From a virus (lineage: Duplodnaviria > Heunggongvirae > Uroviricota > Caudoviricetes): a stretch of DNA of 52,323 bases. Both the position numbers and the translations under genes were made by a program. Positions 1-52,323 of the stretch are shown one piece after another. The DNA lies in the IMG/VR virus record IMGVR_UViG_2563367002_000003. One strand, given 5' to 3'. The number at the start of each line of letters is the position of its first letter. The stretch's first letter is position 1. The notes beneath the pieces were generated by a model. That model did no database searches and had not been told where the DNA came from. It worked only from the letters and a program-made list of their open reading frames with translations.

Positions 1-1182
1 TTACATAACAAACACTTCTTGTATATTACTAAGCGTCTTAGCACCTATACCTTTTATGTTTTTTAAAATATCCAGATCAAGCTTGCCTTCACGAACTCGT
101 GCTTTAACAATTTCTTTAGCGATTGTTCTATTTATATTTAACAATGCTTCCAGTTCATCTAAAGTAGCTTTATTGATATCAGGCTTAGATACAGAGGTTT
201 TGGTATTTGACATATACTCAAGCATATCCGCCACTACTAAATACGTGTGAAATACTGACTTTACAGCTTCAATCCGATCTAACTCGGCATGAACACCTTT
301 ATTTGTTAACTTATTAACTTTATCTAACCATGATCCGAGAAAATCTATATGTGCTTTGGCAAGGTCTTTATTACTATCAGACTGAATAGCCCCATCCATA
401 AATGCCCAAAGGCGGTTTACGTATTGACCTTGCCCAACGGCCCGACCATTAAATTTTTCCTTCGATGCCGGATAAAGTTCATCAGCCAACCCTTCTAGAA
501 GCCTACGACATGTAGTTAAAGCTTGAGACCATTCTTCTTCTTTATCTGAAGAAATAGCTTTAAATGCCAACATTAGTTGTTCTGCGATCACTGGATTTAG
601 ATCTAATAATTTATCATCAACAGCATTTTTCAATACATCAAAACAGTTGCTGACAGTACCTGAAAATTTTAGTTGATTATATATTTGCGATGCTAATTCA
701 TGTGCTTTTTTTCTAACATAATTGATATGTTGATTTAAACTATTCTTATAATACGTTCCGTCATTGCCTTGTTTTTTTCTTACAAGATCGGCATATTTCT
801 CTTCAATAAACCCAATGTTATTATATCCACCACCACTTTCAATATTTTTTAATGTGAGTTCTTCATCTGAATAATGTATATTAGCCTTAACTCCTAATTT
901 GGCAAGTTCTTGTATTCGTTTGTCTAAATTTTCTTGGAAAGATTTATTTTTTGTATTTTCAGCCTCAATAACAAACTTAAGCAATTCAGTTATTGGCTTT
1001 GTATATTTAGTATCACCTAATTGAATAGCACACCATATCTTTTTATCATCATCATTGATGATATCCGAAGTCCGCTGTAGTTTTTGTATAGCCGATAACA
1101 AAGAACCTTTTGGTGACTCGAGTTCTTTAAGTGTTTCTTCAATGAGCTGTAATGCTACTTTCTTGTGTGGCATGTGAATCAT
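1..1182 (-). CDS. hypothetical protein with C-terminal helix-hairpin-helix motif (second gene of a two-gene operon)
   Basis: 393-codon ORF with TAA stop at 1-3; in-frame Met at 1173 has AAGGA at SD distance; C-terminal ~50 aa carries HhH-like signature (LKNIKGIGAKTL); AT-rich; family not recognised. Confidence 0.55.
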   Translation of the reverse strand: MIHMPHKKVALQLIEETLKELESPKGSLLSAIQKLQRTSDIINDDDKKIWCAIQLGDTKYTKPITELLKFVIEAENTKNKSFQENLDKRIQELAKLGVKANIHYSDEELTLKNIESGGGYNNIGFIEEKYADLVRKKQGNDGTYYKNSLNQHINYVRKKAHELASQIYNQLKFSGTVSNCFDVLKNAVDDKLLDLNPVIAEQLMLAFKAISSDKEEEWSQALTTCRRLLEGLADELYPASKEKFNGRAVGQGQYVNRLWAFMDGAIQSDSNKDLAKAHIDFLGSWLDKVNKLTNKGVHAELDRIEAVKSVFHTYLVVADMLEYMSNTKTSVSKPDINKATLDELEALLNINRTIAKEIVKARVREGKLDLDILKNIKGIGAKTLSNIQEVFVM

Positions 1183-1233
1183 CCTTCAACTTATAGCTTC
1201 GTAATCATTAAGTGGTAGATTGTTGCTTTTAAA

Positions 1234-2196
1234 CTAAAAATGAAACTCTGGTGGCTCAGCCATTTTAATACCACCAATACGTATGGGCAGCTCACCTTCT
1301 CGTTGGCACAGGTTCTTAATAGATTGCCACTCCTCAGCTTCTGTTTCCATGTGAGCAGCGACCGAATCAAAAGCACCTTCGGCTACGACTATAGTAGGTT
1401 CTTTATCTGTTTCATTGCCATTCGAATCCACTTTTGGTACTTCGGCCAGTTCTTCTTCCAGCCCAGCCAAACTCACTTTCAGTTCATCAAGACTACTGGC
1501 GGCGTCTATTGGCGCATAGAAGAACAGCCCACTGATGAAGATAGCTTCCATTACCTCACTGAAAGAAAACGAGGTATCGCCATAAACAAAGCAGCCATGC
1601 TTGGAACTCTTCACCCCTGATACATTCTTCTTCAACAGGCCGTCCTTTGCCGACGTCATCAACGCCTGTTTGCTATAGAGGATTACAGGAAGATTTTTAA
1701 TTTCGTGAACATCACCGCTGATACTCCAGCGTTCTTTATCACCTTTAATGAAACCTGAAGCATCGCAGCTACTTTCTATGTCAAACTCATCAGTCGGGAA
1801 CCGCTCACGATTAAAATAGGTCGAAAAATCTTCCCCTTCTTCCATATCCTGACGCTTGTAAGCGCGATAAACCGAGCTACGACGGTCAATCCCAATCCAT
1901 TCAATATCCCATGTCGTTGGCCCGGACGGTTTTCTTACCTCATCTATATAAGCACCAACATCTCTGTCCAGATAAGCTGCTAACAGTGCCTTCCACAGTT
2001 CTATTGCCAGAAAGATACTTGCCAGCGATGTTCCTTCTTCAATCAGAACAGTATGGTGGAAGAAGCGAAGAAGAAAGAAGGGATCGGTATTGGCTATCGT
2101 GTTCTGGATGGATAGCAATGGAACCGCCGAGGTTTCATCGTAATCGGACTGAAACCGCAGTATTGCATCGGAACAAAAAATTAATTTACCTTCCAT
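1234..2196 (-). CDS. hypothetical protein (first gene of the two-gene operon)
   Basis: 320-aa ORF; ATG at 2196 preceded by AGGAGG 9 nt upstream; 52-bp gap to downstream ORF on same strand; no recognisable motif. Confidence 0.55.
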   Translation of the reverse strand: MEGKLIFCSDAILRFQSDYDETSAVPLLSIQNTIANTDPFFLLRFFHHTVLIEEGTSLASIFLAIELWKALLAAYLDRDVGAYIDEVRKPSGPTTWDIEWIGIDRRSSVYRAYKRQDMEEGEDFSTYFNRERFPTDEFDIESSCDASGFIKGDKERWSISGDVHEIKNLPVILYSKQALMTSAKDGLLKKNVSGVKSSKHGCFVYGDTSFSFSEVMEAIFISGLFFYAPIDAASSLDELKVSLAGLEEELAEVPKVDSNGNETDKEPTIVVAEGAFDSVAAHMETEAEEWQSIKNLCQREGELPIRIGGIKMAEPPEFHF

Positions 2197-2959
2197 CGCT
2201 CATCGCCTCCTGACGCTATCAGACAACGCATTTTACCAGAACACTACCACTTACCGCATTCGACTTTAACCTGACCCATGTTCGTTGATAGCTCTGGATA
2301 TATATTCAACCCAAAAGCATTGACCTTATGGATAACATCACAATATCTGAAACTGATAACTCAGATTATAACATCTGTGATTTTATAGTTTCTTCACTCA
2401 TTTGTGTGAGTTCTGAAACCAAGCGAATATAAGTATTTTTCAACCTATCTTTATCGCAACGACTTACAGACTCCGATAACAGATAATGGCTATAATTATT
2501 GACATAAATATCATTGTCATTTTCAATGAGTGAGTTTTATTCCATGTTCAGTATCTTCTACTTTGTTTACAATACAGATCATAAATGGTGTTTTCTCATA
2601 GGGATGAAAGAGTGTTATCATTTTAATATTTTTCATTTTATTTTTTACTTTTTTATTACTATTTAATACAACATCGCGATCGTGAAAATCAAATTTATTT
2701 ATTTTTTAACCATGATTTTCCCTCTTATTTTTAAACTACTTTTGAAAAAATCTTTATCTCTGTGCTGACGCACGGCTACGCCCTGACGCTGACATTTTTA
2801 TTTTATTCATCTCCTGTCTGTTAAATAAAAAGAAAAGCACTCGATCATTGTTTGATCTCTTTTCCTCATGATGCTGAATTTAGATCCTATGTTTAAACAT
2901 AGTTTTTCCCTTTAGACATATAGCATTTGCTCTTAAACGTATAGGAAAACTACATCCTT

Positions 2960-3003
2960 GGTAGCAGCGCTTCGTGATTGTTGCGAACAATCACTCTGCT
3001 GAA
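2960..3003. repeat. palindromic ~43-bp repeat, copy 1 (candidate operator or structured RNA)
   Basis: GGTAGCAGCGCTTCGTGATTGTTGCGAACAATCACTCTGCTGAA; internal inverted repeat TGATTGTT/AACAATCA flanked by CAGCG/CGCTG; second near-identical copy ~138 bp downstream. Confidence 0.6.
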
Positions 3004-3097
3004 CAGGGCTTGCCCCTGTTAATATTGGATTTATCCAAAAAAGATCGCGTCGTAGACGCATATAAAGTTAAAGTAAAATTAATCAAGCAGTCCCGAT

Positions 3098-3142
3098 AGT
3101 AGCAGCGGTTCATGATTGTAGAAAACAATCACTTCGCTGTAA
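3098..3142. repeat. palindromic ~43-bp repeat, copy 2
   Basis: AGTAGCAGCGGTTCATGATTGTAGAAAACAATCACTTCGCTGTAA; same orientation and same inverted-repeat core as copy 1, ~86 percent identical. Confidence 0.6.
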
Positions 3143-3548
3143 TAACATAGTAGGAAAAATAACACAGATAACACCACTGGTGCCATTTTGATAAGGCACC
3201 AATCAACTAAAGAGAAGAACTATTTTCAATATTACATTCTTTAAAATGTCATCCAAAGCTTCGCTATTTGAATAATGAAGAAGAAAAATGCTCTCAAGCC
3301 AGCTATAGCTTAAAACAAAGTACGCACTCTTGGGAGTTAAAGTCCCGAATCCCGGTACTTAAGTTGATAACTATTCTCAAATAAAAATAATAAAGTGTTA
3401 TTGTATATATTCTGTAGCACTACAATTTTTATACGTAAAAACATCAAGTGTTAGTTATTTTAAAAAATATAAACTTTAAGTATTGACTTGCACACAAAAT
3501 ATAGTATCTACTTAAATGTATAACTAAAAAAATAAAGGAGTAAATACC

Positions 3549-4130
3549 ATGATAGAAAATAAGATACAAACTGAAGTAAAGAAATCAAGAAGAGGTCTCC
3601 CACGTCATACTAAAAACCCATTTCTTAATGATACAAGTCTACATACAAAAACTGGCGTCAGACGTATTACTACAGGAAAAGATCGATTAGCATTAGTTAA
3701 TGAGAGTACGGGAGAACAAGTTGGTAATGGTGGTTTCTTTCAGTCTATGGAAGTAGACAAGACACAGTTTGTGAAGCTTTATGTGGATGGCGTATCAGCT
3801 ATTGAGGGTTTATCCTCATCCGGTAAGAAAGTATTCAAGATACTGTATCTTGCTATCAGAGATAATAAAGATACAGATACGATATTAATGTCATTCGATA
3901 TTGTTGATCAAGATATCGTGAAAATATCAAGAACTACTTATTTCAAAGGTATGAAAGAACTTGCTGACAAGAAATTTATTGCTGAGACCATGATACAGAA
4001 CTATTATTTTATTAATCCAGACTATATGTTTAATGGTGATCGTTTAACTTTCATGAAAACTTATTACTTGAAGGACAAAAAAACTAAAACTAAAGAGAAC
4101 AAAATTAATTGCCAAGGCAAAACACAGTAG
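3549..4130 (+). CDS. hypothetical protein, possibly DNA-binding
   Basis: 193-aa ORF; strong SD AAAGGAG 8 nt before ATG at 3549; sits at the end of a 1.3-kb AT-rich intergenic region containing the palindromic repeats; function unknown. Confidence 0.6.
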   Translation: MIENKIQTEVKKSRRGLPRHTKNPFLNDTSLHTKTGVRRITTGKDRLALVNESTGEQVGNGGFFQSMEVDKTQFVKLYVDGVSAIEGLSSSGKKVFKILYLAIRDNKDTDTILMSFDIVDQDIVKISRTTYFKGMKELADKKFIAETMIQNYYFINPDYMFNGDRLTFMKTYYLKDKKTKTKENKINCQGKTQ

Positions 4131-4214
4131 TTTCAAGAAAGAGATTTTCTCAAGCAACTCCTATCTGAATGATAACTCCATAAAGCCAATGCATTTTAAC
4201 AAACTCCCACCCTA

Positions 4215-4946
4215 CTATAAAAATTGTATAGGGTGATTAAAAAATGAAGCGAAATCGAATGAGAAAACGTTTTTTATATACCAGTTTACAAACTCATATC
4301 TTGGAGAGCTGCTTTTTATCATTGCTGACATATCAATTATATTATGTGTTGATCTACGTAGTTCTGATATATAGAGAACAAAATCAACATGTTCATAATG
4401 TGGATTTTCAACAAGAAAATTAAGTTCTGCCATTACATATTCAGATTCATAAGGCATTATCGATTCATTAAGAATAACAAGTCCACCGACTGCTCTAGGA
4501 ATATTTAAAGATTCCTTTGTTGCTCTAATCTGTCTATTGGAGGTTGCTACAAGATCTTTTATATTTCTATAAGCATAATCCATTATCTTTTTTCTGAAAG
4601 CATCTGAGTCGGGGTGTTTTTGAATCAATTCCTCAATATGAACCCTACCGAACCAACTTCTTTTAAGCCATTCATCAGTCTTAGCTAGCTCATTAATTTT
4701 TTCATTTATTAAATCAGTTCTGTCATTTGTGAGTAATTTTTGCTCTAAAATAACATCGTTATTAAATAACAAATAATCTGCCATTTTCGAACTAGAGCCA
4801 TCGTCTTTTTTGAAATCATCCTTCATATCGTCCAATACTATATTATTTTTCTTAGATCGAATAAAATCAAGAAACCTTTTATCTATAGAATCCATCTTTC
4901 CTACCTTCAGTTTTATTTCATCGTCCCGAGCCTGATGATACACCAT
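4215..4946 (-). CDS. hypothetical protein
   Basis: 243-aa AT-rich ORF; alternative in-frame ATG at 4895 has GAAGGTAGGAAAG upstream; no family recognised. Confidence 0.5.
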   Translation of the reverse strand: MVYHQARDDEIKLKVGKMDSIDKRFLDFIRSKKNNIVLDDMKDDFKKDDGSSSKMADYLLFNNDVILEQKLLTNDRTDLINEKINELAKTDEWLKRSWFGRVHIEELIQKHPDSDAFRKKIMDYAYRNIKDLVATSNRQIRATKESLNIPRAVGGLVILNESIMPYESEYVMAELNFLVENPHYEHVDFVLYISELRRSTHNIIDMSAMIKSSSPRYEFVNWYIKNVFSFDFASFFNHPIQFL

Positions 4947-5119
4947 GTCATTTGTCTCTTACAACATTATTAATGTATTAAGCATGGCCATAATAAACAA
5001 CAAAAAAACATTGGCGAGACAAATCAACAGAAATAAACATTGCTGCAAACGGTTAATTTGACACTTACACCATATCTCGTAATATAAATATATCCACTAT
5101 TTTATCCACGAGGTTTTAT

Positions 5120-5599
5120 ATGAGAAAAGTAAAAACAGACAACAGTGATTTAATCGAATATGTAAATACAGTTAAAGAACTAAAAAATCACATTCCAATA
5201 GAAGAATACAGAAATGAATATCGTAAACTGCGTTCTGATGATATTCCATTGGTTAAGGCGCAAAAATTTAAATCTGCCCATACCGAAGTTCGCAGGTTGG
5301 AAAAAAAGAGAGAATCTCTTATTGAATACTTTATTGACGAGTTAAATCCCATCAGCAGTTCAAAAGCTAACACATCAGCAAGATCAACTGGTAATCTCGA
5401 TTTATTTAACGAACGCGTGTTATACCGTAAGGCCATTTCAGAAAAGAGCGATGAAGAAATAGTAGCCTTGGTCATAAAACAACGTACAGAAGCCGCTGTT
5501 GAGTTCCAACGTTCAATTGAACAGAGTCTTGAGCAACTATCTCGTATCTCGTCAGAGTTCGAACCATCAAACCAAAAGCGCAGGAAAATGTCTCTTTAA
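5120..5599 (+). CDS. hypothetical protein
   Basis: 159-aa ORF; GAGG 8 nt upstream of ATG at 5120; charged, likely helical; no family recognised. Confidence 0.5.
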   Translation: MRKVKTDNSDLIEYVNTVKELKNHIPIEEYRNEYRKLRSDDIPLVKAQKFKSAHTEVRRLEKKRESLIEYFIDELNPISSSKANTSARSTGNLDLFNERVLYRKAISEKSDEEIVALVIKQRTEAAVEFQRSIEQSLEQLSRISSEFEPSNQKRRKMSL

Positions 5600-5757
5600 A
5601 ACGACTCTATGCTATTCGTGTGAAATGTGATGTATTAGATTGCTTATGCAATAATGTTTACTATATTATTTACTGACTGTTTTTTTTTGATTTTTCCAAC
5701 AGCACCGTAAGCATTATTTTTATTAATCGCCTATTTTAAAACACCGGATGACATACT

Positions 5758-6162
5758 ATGAGTGAAGCTCTTAAGGCACTGAACAATATTCGTACACTTC
5801 GCGCACAGGCTCGTGAAACAGATCTGGCAACTCTGGAAGAGATGCTGGAAAAACTCACCACAATCGTTGAAGATCGCCGTGAGGAAGAAAATTCAGCCCG
5901 TAAAGAACAAGAAGAACGTCAGGCTAAACTGGAAGCCTTCCGCCAGAAATTGTTAGAAGACGGTATCGATCCTACAGAACTACTCGCTTCAGTTGGTTCA
6001 TCCCAGCCTAAAACCAAATCAACTCGTGCTCCTCGTCCTGCTAAATACAAATATACAGATGAAAACGGTAATGAGCAGACTTGGACGGGTCAGGGCCGTA
6101 CTCCTAAAGCAATCGCCGCTGCTATCGAAGCTGGTAAGACACTGGAAGACTTTGCTATCTAA
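5758..6162 (+). CDS. H-NS family nucleoid-associated protein (horizontally acquired H-NS paralogue, Hfp-like)
   Basis: 134 aa beginning [20 protein letters not shown] and containing TWTGQGRTP, collinear with H-NS/StpA over the full length; lies in the islet next to serU. Confidence 0.9.
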
Positions 6163-6225
6163 CCGCTACAGCATATCCGGGCTTCACTGTTCTCAAGATA
6201 ACAGGCCCGGAAAATATTCGATTAT

Positions 6226-6576
6226 TCATCCAAGACTATCCCAGTCTGGCAGGTTGTTAACGACCTTTCGCCACCAATGATACGCAGCCATAAGAACACC
6301 AAAACAAATACCTGCGACGACGCTTGAGACAAATGCAGTGCCCGGTTGTATCCCTGTATCCTTCCAAGTAAAAAACCACATACAGATCCCCCATGCCGGA
6401 CCAAACCATCCACCCATCAACAAAGTGATTTGCCAGAATGAGGCAAAAGGTAGCGGTGGTATCTTGAGTCCAGCTTTCCATGCGAGGTGTAGCAAAGGAG
6501 GGGCATAATTACTTCGCCACATCCTCTTGCTTTCCATGATGGCAATAGCGTGTTTCTTTTTAGCTTCAAAGCCCAT
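6226..6576 (-). CDS. small membrane protein, function unknown
   Basis: track ORF 6226-6606; in-frame ATG at 6576 has GGAAGG SD; two or three hydrophobic segments; normal GC content. Confidence 0.45.
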   Translation of the reverse strand: MGFEAKKKHAIAIMESKRMWRSNYAPPLLHLAWKAGLKIPPLPFASFWQITLLMGGWFGPAWGICMWFFTWKDTGIQPGTAFVSSVVAGICFGVLMAAYHWWRKVVNNLPDWDSLG

Positions 6577-6684
6577 AAGGTTCCTTCCAGATCCACCTTT
6601 ACTCATCTATCTATCGATAAAAAGCCACAATAGACAATAATGATTATCAATTCCATGTATGTAAGTCAAAAATAACTCAAATAG

Positions 6685-6927
6685 TCATTCCTTTAGATCT
6701 TCTGGTGAAACCCGGTCACATGCCATTTTCTCAAGCATTCTTTGTAATCTTTTCATTTTCAACTTATGTGCTTTTTTCTCACCAATCTCCTGATAGTATT
6801 CTTCACGACGTTCGTTGACCACGCTCCTGAATTTTTTCAAAAGCTGTTCAAGTGTTTTGATGTCGGTAGTTGCGGCTTCCACTTGGATTTTTTTATACAT
6901 ATACATCACATGAAATTCATCAATCAT
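6685..6927 (-). CDS. hypothetical small protein
   Basis: track ORF begins at a TTG (6972); ATG at 6927 is preceded by AAGGAG 6 nt upstream; 80 aa, charged/coiled-coil-like. Confidence 0.45.
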   Translation of the reverse strand: MIDEFHVMYMYKKIQVEAATTDIKTLEQLLKKFRSVVNERREEYYQEIGEKKAHKLKMKRLQRMLEKMACDRVSPEDLKE

Positions 6928-6999
6928 TTTTTGCTCCTTGGATAGAAAAATAATATTTGTTATCAGCCCCAAGAAGGGGCCGATAGACCTCAGAACATA

Positions 7000-7296
7000 T
7001 CAACATATTGATTCCGCCAGAACCGTATAATGCATTTTGGCTAATGCCTGCTTAACCCCTTTAAAATCCACTTCAGACAGTTTTCCAGCAGCGTTCTTTT
7101 TCCATGCTTTTTTCAGAAGATGTTTCTCAGCATTCCTCATCGCCAGATCGATTAGCTTACAAACAAACTCATGATCCATTACATGCGTTATAATCATATT
7201 GCTGGTCGTTTTATCCTTTGAGTTAAAAAGCTCCGCATAGATATGCAAGGACACAACATAAAAGATTTCAGTGTTTTTATTTTTAAATGTATTCAT
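7000..7296 (-). CDS. hypothetical small protein
   Basis: 98-aa ORF; ATG at 7296 with AGAGGA SD ~9 nt upstream; AT-rich. Confidence 0.45.
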   Translation of the reverse strand: MNTFKNKNTEIFYVVSLHIYAELFNSKDKTTSNMIITHVMDHEFVCKLIDLAMRNAEKHLLKKAWKKNAAGKLSEVDFKGVKQALAKMHYTVLAESIC

Positions 7297-7348
7297 TTTT
7301 ATTTCCTCTTTAGTTTAATATTGGAATAGCAAAATATTTGTATGAGCA

Positions 7349-7639
7349 TTAGCGGTATACACACTTATAGACAATCCAAAGCTGACGAAGGTGTTGCTTT
7401 ACCTTACAGTGGTTTACTTCTCCATAAATCCGATTCCTTTTGCCTTCTTCTGTGTCATCGTAAAAATGATATCGCGTTTTTTTAATGATACTTTCCATAA
7501 TGTCATTCATATTGTATTTATTGTTGAGAAAATAATAAAAATCATCTGGTGCATTCCGCCGTAATCCGTCCATATAGTTCCTGAAATAACATTCGGCTTG
7601 TTCAATAAACTCTTTTATCGTAATAAGTTCTATCTTCAT
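7349..7639 (-). CDS. hypothetical small protein
   Basis: track ORF 7349-7651; second ATG at 7639 has GGAG SD 8 nt upstream; AT-rich. Confidence 0.4.
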   Translation of the reverse strand: MKIELITIKEFIEQAECYFRNYMDGLRRNAPDDFYYFLNNKYNMNDIMESIIKKTRYHFYDDTEEGKRNRIYGEVNHCKVKQHLRQLWIVYKCVYR

Positions 7640-7720
7640 ATTTTTCTCCATTATTGTTTAGGGTAATAAGATGCCCTGTGCGAACAGATATTTGTTCGAC
7701 ACGAGATCTTGTTTCTTTTT

Positions 7721-7939
7721 TTATGCAGCGTTCTGGCGTGAGTGTCGAATAGTCACTTCAATCCATTCATCAATCTCACTTTCAACAAAAGCGACACACC
7801 TCGGACCTATTTTTACTCTGTCAGGAAAGTTTCCTTCCTTAATACGCTCATATAAAGTCGTGCGACTAAATCCCACTCGATTTAAAACATCAGGAACGCG
7901 GATAAATCGTTTTACGCTGGTTTCAATATTTTCTTTCAT
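7721..7939 (-). CDS. alpA: AlpA-family phage/island transcriptional regulator (excisionase-like)
   Basis: 72 aa from ATG at 7939 (MKENIETSVKRFIRVPDVLNRVGFSRTTLYERIKEGNFPDRVKIGPRCVAFVESEIDEWIE) fits the AlpA pattern; track ORF is extended upstream to 8011. Confidence 0.8.
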   Translation of the reverse strand: MKENIETSVKRFIRVPDVLNRVGFSRTTLYERIKEGNFPDRVKIGPRCVAFVESEIDEWIEVTIRHSRQNAA

Positions 7940-8155
7940 TGTCTGCCCTCTATTATTGTAAGTAATCTCTATGAGATTTCGCTTTTCTCTATGTTGTTTC
8001 GACGTGAACAATGATAGCGATTTTGCTTATGGTAATTTAGGGACGTTCAAAGAAGTTTTTTTTGAAAAATTCGAAGGGGCACGGATGGAAAGATAACGGT
8101 TAACACTGGATGCGATCACGTTCGCACGGAGCGAACGTAACCCTTTTTACTTGGC

Positions 8156-8992
8156 TTATTTTTTCTTATTCCTGTCGTCTTCTACATGCTTTTCAACAGG
8201 GGAGTCTTTCAAGTGATTGTTTTCCATCATGTAATCTTCAAGCGATTTCAGATAGCTCGCATCCGTCAGAAAAGCCATTGCTAACGGGTAGTCCGTTGCC
8301 TTTAGCATTCCTTCATCACGATCGTTGTCGCTGTCCTCGTGAAGCAGCGAGGAAATCAGTGAAAGCGGGATTTTAATGCCGTTATCTTCTCCCCAGAAGA
8401 TCAGGTCCATCATCGGGATAAGACGATATTCAATAATTTTTCTGAATGTGCTTTTCCCAAAACGATACTCTCTTGGCGCTGGAGACTTCATCTTAAGCTG
8501 TCTCTTCCATCGGGGGATCAACACTTTCAGATGTTCAATGATCTCTTCGGTTGATGCTTCTTCCAGATGAATATCGACAGTAATACGTGAAAGATTATTA
8601 AGGGATGTCTCTTTCAGATACTCGGACAGAAATTCAGACTGGCTTAACCCAGAGAGTTCAGGCGTGGCTTCGGTTAATGCCAGCGTTTTCGCATAAAATT
8701 GCGCGTGGCTTCGTGTCGTAGGATTTACTGCGTAGGTTCTGGCAAGCTCATGTCCAAGAGTAGCGGTATCACCACTGAAAAAGATTTCACCGCTGAGGAT
8801 CTTGTTGCGGTAATCATCCAGCATTAATCGGTTAAAGGTAGGTATGGTGTTCCGGCTCAACAACATTCTGTAAGCCAAGATGCGCCGCTCAACCTCAACA
8901 TAAAAATGCTGTAAGGTGAGTTTCTCTATCGCCTCATAGCGTTCAACATCAAACCATGCTTCCAGTGCTTTCCTGATTTCACTTCTTTTCAT
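8156..8992 (-). CDS. island-associated protein, possibly YfjJ/YagK family
   Basis: 278 aa from ATG at 8992 with GGAGGA SD 4 nt upstream (track start 9049 is TTG); position next to alpA is typical of P4-like islands; family assignment from memory only. Confidence 0.5.
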   Translation of the reverse strand: MKRSEIRKALEAWFDVERYEAIEKLTLQHFYVEVERRILAYRMLLSRNTIPTFNRLMLDDYRNKILSGEIFFSGDTATLGHELARTYAVNPTTRSHAQFYAKTLALTEATPELSGLSQSEFLSEYLKETSLNNLSRITVDIHLEEASTEEIIEHLKVLIPRWKRQLKMKSPAPREYRFGKSTFRKIIEYRLIPMMDLIFWGEDNGIKIPLSLISSLLHEDSDNDRDEGMLKATDYPLAMAFLTDASYLKSLEDYMMENNHLKDSPVEKHVEDDRNKKK

Positions 8993-9270
8993 CCATCCTC
9001 CAACAATCCATTTCCTTTGATATATCTTCACAGGATCCGTTTGGAACAATTGAAGTTCAACTGTTTTGTCATCAGAGACGGGGGAATGGCTAAGTTGTTG
9101 TTAAGAGTGTGAACTCGAGAGCATAAAAGTGGATGCCCGACGCGCGGCAAAATGGTAAAAAACAGCATCAGTAGTAAGAAAAATTGAGCGAGAGAAAGGA
9201 ATTTTAATGCAGGGATTTATGCATGACAAAATCAAAAATGCTTTGTAAGTGATTGATTTTGTTGAATGAT

Positions 9271-9332
9271 TGGCGGAGAGAGGGGGATTTGAACCCCCGG
9301 TAGAGTTGCCCCTACTCCGGTTTTCGAGACCG
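9271..9332 (-). repeat. displaced 3' portion of tRNA-Ser gene (att direct repeat, distal prophage junction)
   Basis: 62 bp matching the 3' end of the intact tRNA-Ser at 51343-51404 with two substitutions (GTAGAG/CCCTACT versus GTGGAG/CCCCACT) that are complementary within the variable-arm stem. Confidence 0.85.
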
Positions 9333-10060
9333 ATGATACAGAGTCGAAAAATCAAAGAGTTAAAAATTTTTCTTGGAATAAATGTCTTAAAATCGTACAC
9401 GAAAAATCAATAAATTACATAACATTAAAGAAGAATATTCCAAGCCTTCTTGAGGCCACCACCTGTTTTCAGGTGTCATTCAGATGTGATTTACCCCAGA
9501 TTGGGAAAGCACGCTTTTTTTTCTCAGCTTATTCCGTTTTGCCTGTGTGTTGAATAATTCCACTGCAGTTATATAAAATCAGTAACAGCTGGAAATCATT
9601 CAATACTCGCACTATCGAAAGTTCGCCAGCCAGCCGTGGCACGTTCTTGCATACGACGTGCTACGGTTTCATTTATCTCCGACCGGAAACCTCTTATACA
9701 AAGTCGATATGCCAACATCATAGATGATCGCCTACTGGTGGAACTTATATATAAAGCAATAATGACCAAACTTTACAGGCGGAGAAGAGCCGCTTCTTTA
9801 AACTTTCCTCAATAACAGCATTACTTGTATAATGCATCAGTTCACAATAGAAAAATGCATACTGCTATGTTGCCCGGATCATCACGGGCATTTTTTATCC
9901 ACCCTACCACGACATATTCATACGCTGCCACACAGAACATTTCAATCCACCAGTATGTTTCCGGTGTTTCACTCTCAGCAACAAACAACAGGAGAACGCA
10001 TAATCGCAGCATAAAATGCATGATGTAAGGAGCTTATATCGCTCCTTACATTAATATTAT

Positions 10061-11340
10061 TCACTGGCCAGACAGCGATGCCAGCATGAAATAATGCAGC
10101 TCATCATTCCTTACAGACATTATTTCACCAGCCTCCCTGACCAGCTTGCGCTCTCCGGTATCGTATTCTTCCATTGTAAGGAGTCCGTCAGGACCAAGCT
10201 CCATACGAGTCCCGTAAACCACTTCATATTCCGCCGGATATTCATCACGACACAAAATACCGTAATCAAAAGCGTCCAGCCCTTCCTCAGAGAAGACCTT
10301 CTGTACGTCCTGAGCAATCACTCCTACATGCCATCTGGCTGCGTTCCCTTTGCTGGACACTGCATCTCTGAAACGGAACCGACAGATATACCCGAGCAGC
10401 TTTCTGGCAACCCTTTTTTCTGCATCCGACAGAATTGTTTCGTCCTGTTTATGAGTCCGGTCTGATGTACTGATACTTCCCGTAGCTGAATAAACCTGTG
10501 CGGGTCGCCATGAGGCATAACCGATCGAATACGTATTATCTGTATAAGGGCGGAGATTTCCTGATGAATCTATGCGCCATCTCTTTTCTCCTCCTGTGGC
10601 ATTTGCATCCTGATTCGTTGCAAAATCAATCACTGTCGCTGACCTGAACACAGATGAACCACCGCCAATTACCAGCGTGTTATTCCCCTCTGATGCCTGT
10701 TGGTCAACTACCAGTATTTTATCCTGATTTTTACCTGAACCACTTTTCGAGGCAGCGATAATACGATTAAACTGATCCTCACCATCGCTCTTTTGTGCGA
10801 TGGTGATAACATTGGACCAGATTGCCTCTCTTTGTCGCTGAAAACCATATTCTCCGCTGTCTGTAGTGACAGCTTTATATTTTATTCCACCTTCAGCTGA
10901 CTCCTGCGTTATATAGAATGTCTGGTTATTAGCATTCTTGATGAACACATAATTGTCAGCAGGAATGTCATTTCCACTCAGATCTTTAATCGGTGTCGTG
11001 GTTGTATGCAGACAAAACCATTTCTGACTCACAGAACGCATATATGCCAGAATTTCAGACAGGGATGTGAATACCGTCCCCAACACCGGGTTTACCAACC
11101 CCTGGGCACTACGGGGAAATGTTCCAATACTGGCATGAGACACATCAAACCCCGTGTACAACCAGGCTGCCTGACGAAAATCAATAGCATCTCTGCCAGT
11201 ACTGAACTCTTTCATCAGAACAATTCCTTTCTGATAAGCCTGTGGTAACCCACGCTCCAGAAAGATATAAAGCGAATATATACTGCCGCCGTCGTCAGAA
11301 ATACAAATTCCTTCGTTCTCAATGCGCGAAGGTGTAAAAC
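10061..11340 (-). pseudogene. tail-fibre gene, C-terminal fragment (S74-type intramolecular chaperone domain), separated from N-terminal part by IS911
   Basis: C-terminal residues SDAEKRVARKLLGYICRFRFRD...WHVGVIAQDVQKV resemble the self-cleaving chaperone domain of tail fibres/endosialidases; track ORF reads through into IS sequence; frame is continuous with 12591-13689 once IS and one TSD copy are removed. Confidence 0.7.
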
Positions 11341-11412
11341 TGAAGTGGTTTACTGAATTTGGCCACCTGAACAGAGGTGATATGCTCACCTCAGAACAAC
11401 ACAGGTGCCATA

Positions 11413-12560
<1,148 letters not shown>

Positions 12561-12590
12561 CTCGGTGGCCAGTTTTTGTTGACCACTTCA

Positions 12591-34267: not shown

Positions 34268-34344
34268 CTGGCGCGTTGTACTGGATTCGAACCAGTGACC
34301 GATTGCTTAGAAGGCAATTGCTCTGTCCGGTTGAGCTAACAACG
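34268..34344 (-). tRNA. tRNA-Arg (anticodon UCU), phage-encoded
   Basis: 77 nt ending CCA; manual fold gives 7-bp acceptor stem, T-loop GGTTCGAATCC, anticodon loop CTTCTAA; closely resembles host argU. Confidence 0.8.
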
Positions 34345-34357
34345 CAGGGTACAGATA

Positions 34358-34434
34358 ATGGACCGCCATCGAGGACTCGAACCCCGCGCAACCAGCTTCG
34401 AAGGCTGGTGCTCTATCCTGATGAGCTAATGGCG
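34358..34434 (-). tRNA. tRNA-Arg (anticodon UCG), phage-encoded
   Basis: 77 nt ending CCA; perfect 7-bp acceptor stem (C1-G72), D-stem GCTC/GAGC, anticodon loop CTTCGAA, T-loop TTCGAGT. Confidence 0.7.
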
Positions 34435-34441
34435 GTATGTG

Positions 34442-34517
34442 ATGGTGGCCCTTGCTGGATTTGAACCAGCGACCTGGCGATTATGAGTCGCTCGCTCTCA
34501 CCTCTGAGCTAAAGGGC
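34442..34517 (-). tRNA. tRNA with CAU anticodon, ileX-like (tRNA-Ile2 read as AUA after lysidine modification, or Met)
   Basis: 76 nt ending CCA; near-identical to host ileX in acceptor, anticodon (loop CTCATAA) and T arms. Confidence 0.75.
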
Positions 34518-34650
34518 CGGGCGCAGGATAATAACGTTACGAAATCAATGTTGCAAGCATTCAAAAATCACCTGGTTAAAAATCACCCTTAGCTCCTCCA
34601 CCAGCGCATTCACCATGTCTATCCGAGATAAGTGGCACAAAAAAACCCGC

Positions 34651-46605: not shown

Positions 46606-46641
46606 AACTGTGGTGATTTTAAGGATACCACCTCGCCTGAC

Positions 46642-46833
46642 GTGGTTAAAAGCAGGCACACAACACGAAAGCGCACGGCGAAGTTCGTCTCACTGTACGG
46701 TGTCGTTAAATTTAATTCGACCGTGCGCTTCCGGTTGTGGCAACCCGCAAAATGGCGCGGCGGTAAGTATGGCGGGGTTATTCCTTCCCCGTTGAGGACA
46801 CCGGGTTGTCAGGTTGACCATACGCTTAAGTGA
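46642..46833 (+). CDS. small basic protein, possibly YdfC-like
   Basis: 63-aa ORF with GTG start and weak SD; Qin-like gene order predicts a ydfC here. Confidence 0.3.
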   Translation: MVKSRHTTRKRTAKFVSLYGVVKFNSTVRFRLWQPAKWRGGKYGGVIPSPLRTPGCQVDHTLK

Positions 46834-46864
46834 CAACCCCGCTGCAACGCCCTCTGTTATCAAT

Positions 46865-46917
46865 TTTCTGGTGACGTTTGGCGGTATCAGTTTTACTCCG
46901 TGACTGCTCTGCCGCCC
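46865..46917 (+). ncRNA. dicF: DicF small regulatory RNA (cell-division inhibitor sRNA)
   Basis: 53-nt TTTCTGGTGACGTTTGGCGGTATCAGTTTTACTCCGTGACTGCTCTGCCGCCC followed by T-run, matching the DicF sequence as I recall it; upstream inverted repeat GGGTTGTCA/TGACAACCC (46803-46840) fits a processing stem; dicB follows. Confidence 0.6.
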
Positions 46918-47091
46918 TTTTTAAAGTGAATTTTGTGATGCGGTGAATGCGGCTAAGCGCACGCGGAACAGTTAAAACCAAAAACAGTGTTATGGGTGGA
47001 TTCTCTGTATCCGGCGTTAATTGTTAACTGGTTAACGTCACCTGGAGGCACCAGGCACCGCATCACAAAACTCATTGTTGAGGGCGCGATA

Positions 47092-47280
47092 ATGAAAACG
47101 TTATTACCAAACGTTAATACGTCTGAAGGTTGTTTTGAAATTGGTGTCACTATCAGTAATCCTGTATTTACTGAAGATGCCATTAACAAAAGAAAACACG
47201 AACGGGAGTTATTAAATAAAGTATGCATTGTTTCAATGCTGGCCCGTTTACGTCTGATGCCAAAAGGATGTGCACAATGA
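47092..47280 (+). CDS. dicB: cell-division inhibitor DicB
   Basis: 62 aa from ATG at 47092: MKTLLPNVNTSEGCFEIGVTISNPVFTEDAINKRKHERELLNKVCIVSMLARLRLMPKGCAQ. Confidence 0.8.
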   Translation: MKTLLPNVNTSEGCFEIGVTISNPVFTEDAINKRKHERELLNKVCIVSMLARLRLMPKGCAQ

Positions 47281-47468
47281 ATCCAGTATTTGCACTTATT
47301 CTGACGGTTTTTCTTGTTTCCGGAGAGCCAGTTGATATTGCAGTCAGTGTTCACAGAACAATGCAGGAATGTATGGCAGCAGCAACCGAACAGAAAATTC
47401 CAGGCAACTGTTATCCGGTCGATAAAGTTATTCACCAGGATAATAACGAAATCCCGGCAGGATTTTAA
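47277..47468 (+). CDS. ydfD: YdfD (small membrane/lysis-associated protein)
   Basis: 63 aa from ATG at 47277 (ATGA overlap with dicB stop, AAGGA SD): MNPVFALILTVFLVSGEPVDIAVSVHRTMQECMAAATEQKIPGNCYPVDKVIHQDNNEIPAGF. Confidence 0.75.
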   Translation: MNPVFALILTVFLVSGEPVDIAVSVHRTMQECMAAATEQKIPGNCYPVDKVIHQDNNEIPAGF

Positions 47469-47561
47469 AACAGCACCGTAATAAATATCCAGTTTCATTC
47501 TTATATGTCAGCAATGGCAGAGATTTGTTCACCCTTAAATCTGTGATGAGGTTTACCAATA

Positions 47562-50003
47562 ATGAGCACTGATAAAGAAGAATTTGCACTATATTGCGAA
47601 GCAAAAAATGACAAAGTAAGAAAACGCCTGGGAATTAAAGGTGGTTTTTACTGGACTACAGCAAAAAAATTATCTGTTGCAATCTCCCGCTGCATTACCG
47701 CAATGGATGACAACGATTATGATGAAGACGACTTTAAAAAACCCGTCCGCGTCAATTTGCCCGTTGTTGACGACCTTCCGCCAGAAGGCGTGTTTGATAC
47801 TGAATTCTGCAACCGCTATGAAAAAGGCGGGAAAGATGGCATCACAATGACATTTATCGGCCCTTCCCCCTCTGTTCAGGACAAACCAGCCAGCACTGAC
47901 AATACCAACATCAACGGCGAAGACATGACTGAGATTGAGGAGAGCATGCTTCTGCCTGTCTCCGGTCAGGAACTGCCCATTCGTTGGCTTGCTCAACACG
48001 GCAGCGAAAAACCAGTAACGCACGTTTCACGCGACGAACTCCAGGCATTACACATTGCACGGGCTGAAGAACTACCGGCTGTTACTGCCCTGGCTATTTC
48101 GCATAAAACCAGTCTGCTCGACTCGCTGGAGATTCGCGACCTCCACAAACTGGTTCGTGACACTGACAAAGTTTTCCCTAATCCTGGTAATTCAGACCTG
48201 GGACTAATAACTGCTTTTTTCGAAGCATACCTGGACGCTGACTACACTGATCGGGGTCTGCTGACAAAAGAGTGGATGAAAGGAAATCGTGTTTCACGCA
48301 TCACCCGCACGGCTTCCGGTGCTAATGCTGGCGGTGGGAACAAAACCGATCGCAATCCGAATTTAGTACACACCCTCGACACACTGGATGTGGAGATTGC
48401 AGCAGCCACACTTCCGATGGATTTTAATATTTATGAAATTCCGGGCAGCGTTTATCGTCGCGCAAAAGAAGTAGTCCTGAACAAAGAAAGTCCGTTCAAA
48501 GAATGGTCCGCAGCACTTCGTGCAACCCCGGGTATTCTGGACTATTCCCGCGCCGCTATTTTTGCACTTATCCGAAGCGCACACCCTGAATTTTATCACT
48601 ACCCGGGACGCCTTCAGGGGTATATCAACGCCTATTTGACGGAAACTGATCACGAGAACCCCAGCAAGGAAACTCTCACAGCTGCCCGGCATACGCCGGA
48701 AAAAGATATCCTGGAAGAAATTAACCGCGAGGTGGTTACTGAGCGTGAAACAGAAGAAGAAAAACCACAACCATCTGACGCAATGGCAGGTGAACAGGCA
48801 ACAACTGAAACAATGGAACCGGATACAACTGAACATGGCCAGAACGCGCAGTCGCTGGATGCTCAGTCGCAGGTGAGTTCCGCTAACCAAGTAAAAGTCA
48901 CCGCTGACGAAGCAAACAAAATTATGCAGGCAGCCAATATCAGCCAGCCTGACGCCGATAAGTTACTTGCTGTATCGCGTGGTGAATTTGTTGAGGGGAT
49001 TAGCGACCCTAATGATCCGAAATGGGTCAAGGGGATCCAGACTCGCGATTCTGTGAACCAGAACCAGCATGAATCGGAACGGAACGACCAAAAAGCGGAA
49101 CAAAACAGCCCAAATGCGTTACAAAACGAGCCAGAAACGAAACAATCCGAACCAGTAGCGCAACAGGAACCGGAAAAAGTCTGCACCGCCTGCGGTCAGA
49201 GCGGTGGCGGCAACTGCCCTGATTGTGGCGCGGTGATGGGCGACGCAACATACCAGGAAACATTCGATGAAGAGAATCAGGTTGAAGTTCAGGAAAATGA
49301 TCCGGAGGAAATGGAAGGCGCTGAACATCCACACAAGGAGAACCCTGGCGGCAATCAGCATCACGCCAGCGATAATAAAACTGGCGAGACGGCAGATCAC
49401 TCAATTAAGGTGAACGGTCATCACGAAATCACATCCACCAGCAGGACGTGTGACCATCTAATGATCGACCTTGAAACCATGGGAAAAAATCCTGATGCCC
49501 CGATCATCTCAATAGGTGCAATATTTTTCGATCCGCAAACCGGAGATATGGGACCGGAATTTAGTAAGACTATCGATCTGGAAACTGCTGGCGGAGTCAT
49601 TGATCGGGACACCATTAAATGGTGGCTTAAGCAATCACGCGAAGCGCAATCTGCCATTATGACCGATGAAATCCCGTTAGATGATGCACTGTTACAATTG
49701 CGGGAATTTATCGACGAAAACTCCGGTGAATTTTTTGTTCAGGTCTGGGGAAATGGAGCCAACTTCGACAACACGATTTTGCGCCGTTCATACGAACGGC
49801 AGGGGATCCCCTGCCCGTGGCGTTACTACAACGATCGCGATGTACGCACAATCGTTGAGCTGGGGAAAGCCATAGACTTCGATGCCAGAACGGCTATTCC
49901 ATTCGAAGGTGAGCGACATAATGCACTTGATGACGCTCGTTACCAGGCAAAATACGTTTCAGCTATCTGGCAAAAACTGATCCCGAGTCAGGCTGATTTT
50001 TAA
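47562..50003 (+). CDS. large multidomain phage protein with C-terminal DEDDh-type 3'-5' exonuclease domain (YdfE-like N-terminus)
   Basis: 813 aa; C-terminal ~180 aa has DnaQ-like motifs ([19 protein letters not shown]); CxxC-N9-CxxC zinc ribbon ([16 protein letters not shown]); long acidic low-complexity linker. Confidence 0.7.
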
Positions 50004-50061
50004 TGTTCAACCCTAATTGCCGCTAACCGTATATAGTTAGCGGCGGTTATGAGATATAGCT

Positions 50062-50265
50062 ATGAGCAGCTTATTTTTAACCGAAGATGAATTGCTAATA
50101 TTAACGGGCTGCAAATATGCAAGCCACCAGCGAAAATGGTTAATGGAAAACGGGCTTCCGTTCTATACCAATCGTAGTGGCAAACCGATTGTCAGCCGGG
50201 ATCTATTTACCTGCAATAAAACTTTACCACCACGCGAGGTAGAGCCGAATTTTGGTGCGATCTGA
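50062..50265 (+). CDS. excisionase (Xis-like)
   Basis: 67 aa; immediately upstream of integrase with 1-nt stop/start overlap. Confidence 0.6.
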   Translation: MSSLFLTEDELLILTGCKYASHQRKWLMENGLPFYTNRSGKPIVSRDLFTCNKTLPPREVEPNFGAI

Positions 50266-51290
50266 TGGGAAGACGAAGGAAAAATCCTGAACACGAAAAA
50301 TTACCTCCAAATGTATACCCAAATAAATATAGTTATGTATGGAAACCAACATCCAGAGAATCTGTCACACTAACCGCCATCAAGGATGGTTTAGCTGCTT
50401 TATGGAAAAAGTATGAGGAAACTGTAAATAATCGCGATCGTGCAATGACATTCGGTCGCTTGTGGGAAAAATTCCTCGCCAGCGCCTATTACAGTGACCT
50501 TAGTCCAAGAACACAAAAAGATTATCTGCAACATCAAAAAAAGTTGCTTGCCGTATTCGGTAAGGTACCAGCGGATTCCATAAAACCAGAACACATCCGT
50601 CGATACATGGACAAAAGAGGGGAGCAGAGTAAAACGCAAGCCAACCATGAAAAAAGCAGTATGTCCCGTGTTTACAGTTGGGGGTATGAGCGAGGGTACG
50701 TCAAGGCTAACCCATGTGCAGGTGTAAGTAAATTCAAGGCCAAAAACCGCGAACGATATGTAACCGACAAAGAATACCAGGCAGTATTAAGCGTTGCACC
50801 TCTTCCTGTTTTTATCGCAATGGAAATTGCCTATCTGTGTGCAGCGAGGGTTTCCGATGTGTTATCGCTGAAATGGGAACAGATTGGAAACGACGGGATA
50901 TTCATCCAGCAAGGGAAAACCGGAAAAAAACAGATAAAAGCATGGAGTCCACGATTACAGGCAGCGATCGAAAAAGCAAAACAGTTACCAAAATCTGCCT
51001 ATGTGATCAGCAATCAATACGGCAACCGATATATGTACAAAGGCTTTAACGAAATGTGGGTAGAAGCAAGAAATCGTGCTGGAAAAATTTCAGGTATTTT
51101 AACCGACTTCACCTTTCATGATCTGAAGGCGAAAGGAATTTCAGACTATGAAGGAAGCAGCCGGGATAAGCAACTTTTCTCTGGTCACAAAACCGAAGGG
51201 CAAGTGCTAATCTATGACAGGAAGGTTAAAGTTTCACCAACACTTGATGTCCCGTTACCTGAAAATATTCCAAGAAAATATTCCAAGTAA
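50265..51290 (+). CDS. tyrosine integrase (lambda family)
   Basis: 341 aa; C-terminal catalytic region (… FTFHDLKAKGISDYEG … HKTEGQVLIYDR …); adjacent and convergent to the tRNA-Ser attachment site. Confidence 0.9.
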   Translation: MGRRRKNPEHEKLPPNVYPNKYSYVWKPTSRESVTLTAIKDGLAALWKKYEETVNNRDRAMTFGRLWEKFLASAYYSDLSPRTQKDYLQHQKKLLAVFGKVPADSIKPEHIRRYMDKRGEQSKTQANHEKSSMSRVYSWGYERGYVKANPCAGVSKFKAKNRERYVTDKEYQAVLSVAPLPVFIAMEIAYLCAARVSDVLSLKWEQIGNDGIFIQQGKTGKKQIKAWSPRLQAAIEKAKQLPKSAYVISNQYGNRYMYKGFNEMWVEARNRAGKISGILTDFTFHDLKAKGISDYEGSSRDKQLFSGHKTEGQVLIYDRKVKVSPTLDVPLPENIPRKYSK

Positions 51291-51342
51291 TTCCAAGTGT
51301 GATTTTTGTCACTGACTTAATGATGTGTAAGTGATTGAATTT

Positions 51343-51404
51343 TGGCGGAGAGAGGGGGATTTGAACCCCCGGTGGAGTTGCCCCCACTCCGGTTTTCGAG
51401 ACCG
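51343..51404 (-). repeat. att core repeat (proximal copy, within serU 3' end)
   Basis: 62 bp matching 9271-9332 except for two compensatory substitutions. Confidence 0.8.
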
Positions 51405-51432
51405 GTCCGTTCAGCCGCTCCGGCATCTCTCC
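51343..51432 (-). tRNA. serU: tRNA-Ser (anticodon CGA), serU; 3' portion is the phage-derived att core
   Basis: 90 nt, GGAGAGATGCCGGAGCGGCTGAACGGACCGGTCTCGAAAACCGG ... CCCCCTCTCTCCGCCA; long variable arm; anticodon loop CTCGAAA. Confidence 0.9.
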
Positions 51433-51525
51433 GTTCAGATGGTTGCCATGATGCCAGGAAATTTGGCATTTTAACAGTCCCTGTCCGTGCAATTTTGTTC
51501 AAGTGACGAGTTTGCGAGCAAAACG

Positions 51526-52323
51526 ATGATTAAGTGGCCCTGGAAAGTACAAGAATCAGCACATCAAACTGCCCTTCCCTGGCAGGAAGCACTATCGATC
51601 CCCCTTTTAACGTGTCTGACAGAACAGGAACAAAGCAAATTGGTCGCTCTTGCCGAACGTTTTTTACAGCAAAAACGGCTTGTTCCTTTACAGGGCTTTG
51701 AGCTGAATTCATTAAGAAGCTGCCGGATAGCACTTCTATTTTGCCTGCCCGTTCTGGAGTTAGGACTGGAATGGCTGGATGGTTTTCATGAAGTCTTAAT
51801 TTATCCTGCGCCATTTGTGGTCGATGATGAATGGGAAGACGATATCGGTCTGGTGCATAACCAACGTATTGTTCAGTCAGGTCAGAGCTGGCAGCAAGGG
51901 CCTATCGTTTTGAACTGGTTGGATATACAAGATTCTTTTGATGCTTCTGGTTTTAACCTGATTATTCATGAAGTCGCTCATAAGCTGGACACCCGTAACG
52001 GCGATCGCGCCAGCGGAGTTCCCTTTATTTCGTTGCGTGAGGTTGCTGGCTGGGAACACGATCTTCATGCTGCAATGAACAACATTCAGGAAGAAATCGA
52101 ATTAGTTGGTGAGAATGCGGCGAGCATTGATGCTTATGCTGCCAGTGATCCTGCTGAATGTTTTGCCGTACTTTCTGAATATTTCTTTAGCGCCCCAGAA
52201 CTTTTTGCTCCTCGTTTCCCTTCATTGTGGCAACGTTTCTGTCAATTTTATCAACAAGATCCTTTGCAGAGACTGCATCACGCTAATGATACAGACTCGT
52301 TTTCGGCGACGAATGTTCATTAA
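51526..52323 (+). CDS. mtfA: MtfA (Mlc titration factor A) zinc-dependent peptidase
   Basis: 265 aa from ATG at 51526 ([28 protein letters not shown] ... HEVAHKLD ...), HExxH motif; host gene flanking serU. Confidence 0.9.

Follow-up and report, generated by a model that had tools for sequence, protein, structure and literature searches.

Integration into tRNA genes by tyrosine integrases, with the target regenerated and a 3' fragment displaced, was reportedly described by Reiter in 1989 and by Williams in 2002. The principle of a regenerated target and a displaced fragment is the one used by Islander, for which a tandem array is a series of elements each with its own fragment and its own integrase; 125 such arrays were catalogued in 2168 genomes (PMC4383910). 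A preprint (bioRxiv 10.1101/2020.11.02.365908, citing Williams 2002) distinguishes integrase subfamilies with anticodon-loop sublocations from those with T-loop/3'-end sublocations. In E. coli, prophages of STEC, e.g., those of O145:H28, are known to use serU (PMC7067040), and the gene is also the site of PAI-CFT073-serU, a 22 kb island with 38% GC that carries TcpC (PMC7545054) and is listed, as PAI-CFT073-serU/PAI VII536, in PMC5521745 as well.

The stretch of DNA analysed here, hereafter the window, is 52,323 nucleotides long and comes from the blood isolate E. coli AHB10 (NZ_OZ546984.1; window position 1 is record position 321933), which is a CFT073-like E. coli of phylogroup B2. We read the window as a two-element tandem array in the single-copy serU gene, in which the island appears to have arrived first and a 42-kb phage second, and we give this reading a probability of about 0.93. 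When the locus is compared with Islander-type elements nothing essential differs: here too an intact tRNA gene and a same-orientation 3' fragment bound an integrase-bearing element, and the 3' part of the gene comes from that element. What is particular to this array is a matter of detail, namely the use of two sublocations of one gene, a 62-bp block from the anticodon stem and 14 bp at the 3' end, and the position of the island integrase, which lies at the end of the island away from the tRNA, a minor peculiarity of the catalogued island. The island, the integration site and the mechanism are all known, and the locus is an ordinary, textbook example of stacking at one tRNA, of a kind already catalogued.

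The serU repeat and its two variant positions

The only copy of the tRNA-Ser(CGA) gene serU that ARAGORN found in the window lies at 51343-51432, on the minus strand, and is followed by the host backbone gene mtfA (51526-52323, plus strand), which runs to the end of the window. The 3' part of this gene, 51343-51404, recurs in the same orientation at 9271-9332, as a direct repeat of 62 nt with 2 mismatches. A 61-nt probe (9272-9332) matched itself and 51344-51404 only, again with 2 mismatches, and had no match in 100 shuffles; the T common to 9271 and 51343 extends the match to 62 nt, and at the other end the identity of the two copies stops abruptly at 9333/51405. In terms of the 90-nt tRNA, the repeat comprises linear nt 29-90, that is, the anticodon stem minus its first nucleotide through to the encoded CCA. 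The intact gene and its displaced fragment thus bound an interval, and within this interval, at 50265-51290, there is an integrase with tyrosine recombinase domains.

The two variant positions fall at 9302, which is A where 51374 is G (tRNA nt 59, U and C, respectively), and at 9313, which is T where 51385 is C (tRNA nt 48, A and G, respectively). In the cloverleaf fold obtained with RNAfold the variable-arm stem of serU has 6 bp, formed by nt 46-51 with 56-61, and nt 48 pairs with nt 59, so that this pair is A-U in the displaced copy (minus strand, 9302-9313) and G-C in the intact gene. The predicted energies were -42.6 kcal/mol for the G-C form and -40.6 kcal/mol for the A-U form; of the possible intermediates, the one with G-U kept the variable-arm stem (-40.3), while in the one with A/C the stem was lost. 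By our own estimate, the chance that two random changes in 62 nt form one internal Watson-Crick pair is (30/62)(1/61)(1/3) = 0.003. The preliminary description of this DNA had noticed a 62-bp copy at 9271-9332 with two variants that pair with each other in the variable arm; its coordinates are exact, the pairing is reproduced by RNAfold, and the observation of a displaced serU 3' end with a compensatory pair is confirmed.

The tcpC island to the left of the repeat

The part of the window that precedes the repeat, 1-9270, corresponds to 9.27 kb at the right end of the tcpC serU island known from B2 ExPEC (PAI-CFT073-serU/PAI VII536), with 99.98% identity to CFT073 and a GC content of 37%. To the left of the window the AHB10 chromosome carries tcpC (11125-12048 of the fetched left segment, L025), a second TIR gene, a macro-domain gene, a mobQ gene interrupted by an IS, traD, pilin genes, a large hypothetical gene, an integrase and then zinT. 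The island spans 22,507 bp between its direct repeats in CFT073 and 23.8 kb in AHB10. Hence, its position at serU, its size of about 22 kb, the 37% GC of the part in the window and the presence of tcpC all agree with PAI-CFT073-serU, and so do the right end (99.98%), the junctions and the integrase, WP_001298509.1, the published values being 22 kb and 38% GC. AHB10 differs from the described island in that a prophage separates the island from the working serU, and in that an ISEc52 copy interrupts mobQ.

The island integrase is intact, 406 aa long and the same protein in AHB10 and CFT073; its gene lies 13.1-14.3 kb to the left of window position 1 (L025 1621-2841). Its Pfam domains, Arm-DNA-bind_3 (DUF4102), Phage_int_M and the catalytic domain, together with 31% identity to IntA of the K-12 element CP4-57 (E=1e-37) and a 14-bp repeat at the serU 3' end, place it with the P4/IntA-type integrases. 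The 14-bp repeat, TGGCGGAGAGAGGG, is the extreme 3' end of serU and marks the right junction of the island at 9271-9284 (minus strand), as located by comparison with the K-12 junctions. Its left copy is found at L025 1443-1456, 14.5 kb to the left of the window and 164 bp before the start codon of the island integrase, in serU orientation and joined to the sequence that in K-12 stands immediately 3' of serU. Overall, TGGCGGAGAGAGGG occurs once in the left segment of AHB10, twice in the window and never in shuffles.

The order along the chromosome is therefore the zinT side, a K-12-type flank, the 14-bp copy, the island, the 62-bp copy, the prophage, the whole serU and mtfA, so that in AHB10 the serU 3' end is present in three nested direct copies and the locus has two integrases; each element has a copy and an integrase of its own (the 14-bp copy for the island, the 62-bp copy for the prophage). 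A single integrase serving both elements was considered and ruled out, since in a BLASTP comparison of the two proteins the only match was of 27 residues (E=0.003), which is no meaningful similarity. The stacked acquisition at one tRNA that had been proposed from the window is borne out by this arrangement. It had also been held that an integrase with its own direct repeat lying beyond position 1 would speak against stacking; the sequence to the left does contain the island integrase and its 14-bp repeat, but they read as completing the tandem array. Moreover, the view that the element at 1-9270 lacks an integrase and is probably older holds in part: it is not integrase-less, its integrase being to the left of the window, while population data, considered below, favour its earlier arrival.

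Within the window, the island has an AlpA-family helix-turn-helix gene at 7721-7939 (minus strand; a RefSeq CDS; Pfam Phage_AlpA, E=2e-18; 32% identity to K-12 AlpA, E=2e-10), as had been noticed, and its product is likely the excision/regulatory factor of the P4-type integrase of the island. The last island gene before serU is a DUF6387 gene at 8156-8992 (minus strand; Pfam DUF6387, E=8e-52). The YfjJ-like gene that had been proposed for this region was not found: a tblastn search of the window with K-12 YfjJ gave no match at E<=0.01, and BLASTP of YfjJ against the DUF6387 protein gave E=34. As a consequence, of the alpA plus yfjJ pair of a CP4-57-like module only the AlpA homologue is present.

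Other genes of the island were noted in passing. At window positions 1-1182, 3549-4130 and 5758-6162 there are genes for a ComEA-like helix-hairpin-helix protein, a RepL-like replication/maintenance protein and H-NS-family proteins, a content that fits an integrative element of plasmid origin, capable of mobilisation, better than the remnant of a phage. The tcpC gene, which encodes an NAD+ hydrolase TIR protein, stands beside the second TIR-domain gene and the macro-domain gene (L025 11125-13662); the island variant of APEC IMT5155 has instead, near the H-NS genes, a SMODS nucleotidyltransferase and a SLATT gene (L003 2178-4061). Both sets, TIR/macro-domain and SMODS/SLATT, look like anti-phage defence cargo. 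In THO-006, a sequence of about 222 bp between zinT and the left flank of the island (L004 4567-4790) replaces the yodB region, which measures 995 bp in K-12 (L005 4027-5021).

The prophage and the origin of the two alleles

The prophage occupies 9333-51342 (42,010 bp), limits which follow from the RefSeq annotation of close relatives and from its precise absence in CFT073 and in 340 island-only genomes. Its GC content is 50%, against 37% for the island part of the window. According to the RefSeq annotation of closely related copies, its late genes encode a P27-type small terminase, an HK97-type head and a contractile tail, and its early region is lambdoid, with CI/Cro, replication P, an exonuclease, DicB and lysis genes. 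The integrase gene (50265-51290, plus strand), which adjoins the regenerated serU, encodes a tyrosine integrase of 341 aa with Pfam Phage_integrase, Phage_int_M and SAM-like domains; directly upstream is a DUF4224 gene (50062-50265, plus strand; Pfam DUF4224, E=1.9e-15), whose product, judged by size and position, is likely an excisionase/directionality factor.

Candidate arm-type sites flank the core on both sides. In the P arm (9372-9444) there are TTATTCCAAG at 9372-9381 on the minus strand and ATATTCCAAG at 9435-9444 on the plus strand, and in the P' arm tandem (GAAAAT)ATTCCAAG repeats at 51261-51298 (plus strand) overlap the end of int. Exact copies of ATATTCCAAG occur three times in the 52-kb window (9435-9444, 51265-51274 and 51278-51287), all within about 110 bp of an att core, and the copy at 9372-9381 is inverted, with one mismatch. 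Motifs of the ATATTCCAAG type may be the arm-type sites of the integrase. In other strains, the phage bodies joined to the module of int, P', core and P are quite different. The LT-IIb prophage SerU-LTIIb (KU052038) uses the same locus as the AHB10 prophage, and its distal junction has the same tRNA-Ser pseudogene of 62 nt, with a P arm related to that of AHB10; compared with other serU prophages, the phage body of AHB10 differs in its contractile tail, P27-type terminase and three tRNA genes, and is one mosaic of many.

An IS3-family element, ISEc52-like, lies in the tail-fibre region of the prophage at 11341-12589 (plus strand), as a 1249-bp insertion whose flanks overlap by 4 bp; ISEc52 is annotated at this insertion in the AHB10 record. 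The prophage of THO-006, near-identical in other respects, lacks this IS, and the junction of the insertion was found in one of 5426 genomes. The two prophages have 99.6% identity, being one IS and 77 SNPs apart, and int is frameshifted in the THO-006 sister. The AHB10 prophage may still be competent for excision; on the other hand, the IS in its tail-fibre region and the frameshifted int of THO-006 make its present-day mobility uncertain. ISEc52-like copies were also seen elsewhere, in mobQ of the AHB10 island (L025 8822-9991) and in the tape-measure gene of FDAARGOS_1293 (L012 30126-31295), and these differing positions in near-identical elements suggest that the IS has been active recently, disabling the prophage independently. 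A cluster of tRNA genes for Arg(UCU), Arg(UCG) and Met(CAU) is located at 34269-34518 on the minus strand of the prophage; none is annotated in the matching region of THO-006.

The two versions of the repeat can be assigned to host and phage by comparison with other sequences. The serU gene of K-12 MG1655 is identical to the displaced copy at 62 of 62 positions, and so is that of CFT073, which carries the A-U pair; neither matches the intact copy. CFT073 is collinear with window 1-9332 (99.98%; L023 14573-23903 in CFT073) and with 51335-52323 (99.6%), the two alignments overlapping by 71 nt at serU. With the island present and the prophage absent, CFT073 corresponds to the window minus 42 kb and offers an exact empty attB, where only the core is common to both flanks. 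For a synthetic excision product, a 100% match was obtained in a Nissle-derived genome, and 340 genomes covered at least 80% of it. The claim that the displaced copy is the canonical host serU thus stands.

When the best serU match was taken in each of 5426 complete E. coli genomes, 1179 records had the G-C allele, i.e., about 22%, with a match identical to the gene of the window, and 4246 the A-U allele (97.8% identity to that gene, from which it differs at the two positions). An integrase of the prophage type immediately beside serU was found in 1144 genomes, close to the number of G-C records, about 35 of which had no match of at least 80% to the int query. In an evenly spread sample of the serU match list, a second partial serU copy was present in 7 of 7 G-C genomes and in 2 of 22 A-U genomes (Fisher p=2e-5); the association between allele and occupancy is thus drawn from matching totals and from this 29-genome spread sample.

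To see the phage form of the core, IMG/VR was scanned with an attP pattern in which P' arm, core and P arm were contiguous and both variable positions were N. One contig (L011) matched, with 97.5% identity to window 46622-51404 and 96.8% to 9262-9631, and its order is int, P' arm, the GGTGGAGTTGCCCCCACTCC core and then ATGATACAGAGTCG; the P'-core-P continuity is that of an attP, and the junction of a tandem lysogen would look alike. The core of this contig is the G-C allele, identical to the 62 nt of the working serU (51343-51404, minus strand; G48-C59). Since the attP contig carries G-C, the working serU (51343-51432, minus strand; ARAGORN, RNAfold) is a chimera of host nt 1-28 and a phage-supplied 3' part, and the fragment at the distal junction (9271-9332, minus strand; tRNA nt 29-90) has the host allele, A48-U59. 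This result, with the 1144 genomes that have int beside serU and the 1179 with G-C, upholds the earlier proposal that the functional gene has a phage-derived 3' part. The double substitution preserves the variable-arm stem, and hence the phage-borne segment rebuilds a foldable tRNA.

In the GenBank phage collection, searched with the reconstructed attP, no free phage carrying it was found. The two best hits, vB_EcoS-689R5 and vB_EcoM-606R7, were rejected as free carriers, since they are predicted prophages whose sequences also contain mtfA and asnT of the host; ev099, mEp332 and PhiR70_1 were rejected as well, as their match comes from a fossil junction of host flank, serU and P arm with the A-U allele. 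This fossil serU distal junction, found at 2239-2773 in ev099 (NC_049953.1) and at 2051-2585 in mEp332 (fetched segments L006 and L007), and also in PhiR70_1, consists of 278 bp of E. coli flank (K-12, L005 5191-5468), the 62-nt A-U fragment and ~197 bp of the P arm of this phage family, and is placed between the tail-fibre module and the AraC/transposase/int region. In the three lambdoid phages it looks like host DNA that an imprecise excision picked up and that later became fixed in a phage lineage.

Outside E. coli, serU likewise lies in an mtfA-asnT neighbourhood and has G-C as its resident allele in Brenneria populi, Entomohabitans teleogrylli, Rosenbergiella sp. and a Pluralibacter MAG. 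No homologue of either integrase was found in the fetched flanks of serU in these four. In Enterobacillus tribolii, a remnant of the C-terminus of a phage-type integrase (83% identity over 48 aa) adjoins the tRNA. The presence of G-C in a few other Enterobacterales is suggestive, nothing more, of an older host origin of the phage core.

Order of events and biological meaning

The arrangement would be explained by two integrations. The tcpC island, in our reading the first, would have entered at the last 14 bp of serU by means of its P4/IntA-type tyrosine integrase, leaving, towards zinT, a 14-bp direct repeat beside the former chromosomal flank. The 42-kb temperate phage would then have recombined its attP, which carries a 62-bp copy of serU nt 29-90, with serU by means of the unrelated tyrosine integrase. 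The gene beside int would have kept host nt 1-28 and gained the phage 3' part with G48-C59, and the host 3' part with A48-U59 would have been displaced by 42 kb to 9271-9332, still abutting the island. As both phage alleles are beside int and both host alleles are in the displaced copy, strand exchange would have occurred within 9314-9332/51386-51404, that is, in nt 29-47, the anticodon stem-loop region, inside an attP/attB identity block that reaches from the anticodon stem to the 3' end (nt 29-90); this bracket, deduced from the segregation of the alleles, assumes that there was no heteroduplex repair. A motif TAAGT(G/C)ATTGA is found just 3' of serU in the K-12 flank (L005 5453-5465), at the right end of the island (9244-9256) and in the phage P' arm (51329-51341), and the island end and the P' arm share a block of 13 nt, TGTAAGTGATTGA, without any mismatch; target homology therefore reaches beyond the tRNA in both elements.

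The integrations need not have taken place in the AHB10 lineage itself. The serU/HPI/pks region is a recombination hot spot that has moved in large blocks (PMC5521745), and a large chromosomal segment already bearing island and prophage could have been acquired by homologous recombination. A query over the junction of island, displaced copy and P arm was covered to at least 80% in 19 genomes only, and five of them share the exact junction over the full query, as such a transfer would allow. We consider this unlikely, the junctions being precise att junctions; moreover, a transfer of this kind would alter where the integrations happened and not the structure that resulted.

The map alone would be the same for either order, because the displaced 62-bp copy keeps the 14-bp target of the island, TGGCGGAGAGAGGG, beside the native flank; the phage could thus have entered serU first and the tcpC island later, into the target retained in the displaced fragment, and genomes with the prophage only are indeed common (int in 1144, island in 383). 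The population data point the other way. Of the genomes with the island left junction, about 383, no prophage is present in 340, where the island directly adjoins an A-U serU; by comparison, the query over the junction of island, displaced copy and P arm was covered to at least 80% in only the 19 genomes given above. Island and backbone of AHB10 are 99.98% identical to those of CFT073, which has the island only. Between AHB10 and THO-006 the prophage has diverged more (99.6%) than the island (99.98%, the same value as with CFT073), different phages stand behind the same att module in island-bearing strains, and the island is reported to be clonally inherited within B2 PAI groups (PMC5521745). 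For these reasons, an entry of the phage before the island appears very improbable, and island first, prophage second is favoured.

That the alleles are the reverse of our assignment, with G-C a native E. coli polymorphism and the A-U copy at 9271-9332 phage-borne, deserves next to no credence in spite of genera such as Brenneria, Rosenbergiella, Entomohabitans and Pluralibacter, where G-C is resident and no related integrase is close by, since it is already contradicted by the G-C of the attP-form contig and the A-U of K-12 and CFT073, and is further opposed by an A-U copy that runs into host/island flank and not into phage DNA, and is beside K-12 flank in the fossil junctions too, and by G-C counts that follow the presence of the integrase (1179 and 1144).

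The long variable arm of serU is the main recognition element for seryl-tRNA synthetase (SerRS). Phage lysogeny could in principle act as a silent tRNA conversion, the G-C pair altering charging, stability or UCG decoding and being selected rather than neutral, in which case about one fifth of sequenced E. coli would express a serU with a phage-chosen G-C in place of the native A-U; we give this idea very little credit. G-C is resident in several other Enterobacterales and is thus a viable native form of the serU tRNA; we rate a functional effect of the phage-supplied pair as unlikely.

The serU tandem array of AHB10 raises no new question. Its analysis fixes the exact ends of the 42,010-bp prophage and identifies the 62-nt tRNA-Ser fragment as an att scar and not a gene; in this blood isolate, a phage now stands between the tcpC island and serU. 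About 22% of complete E. coli genomes carry the G48-C59 allele, a simple marker of a serU that this integrase family occupies or once occupied, and the compensatory pair illustrates how selection acts on phage-borne tRNA segments to rebuild a working tRNA.
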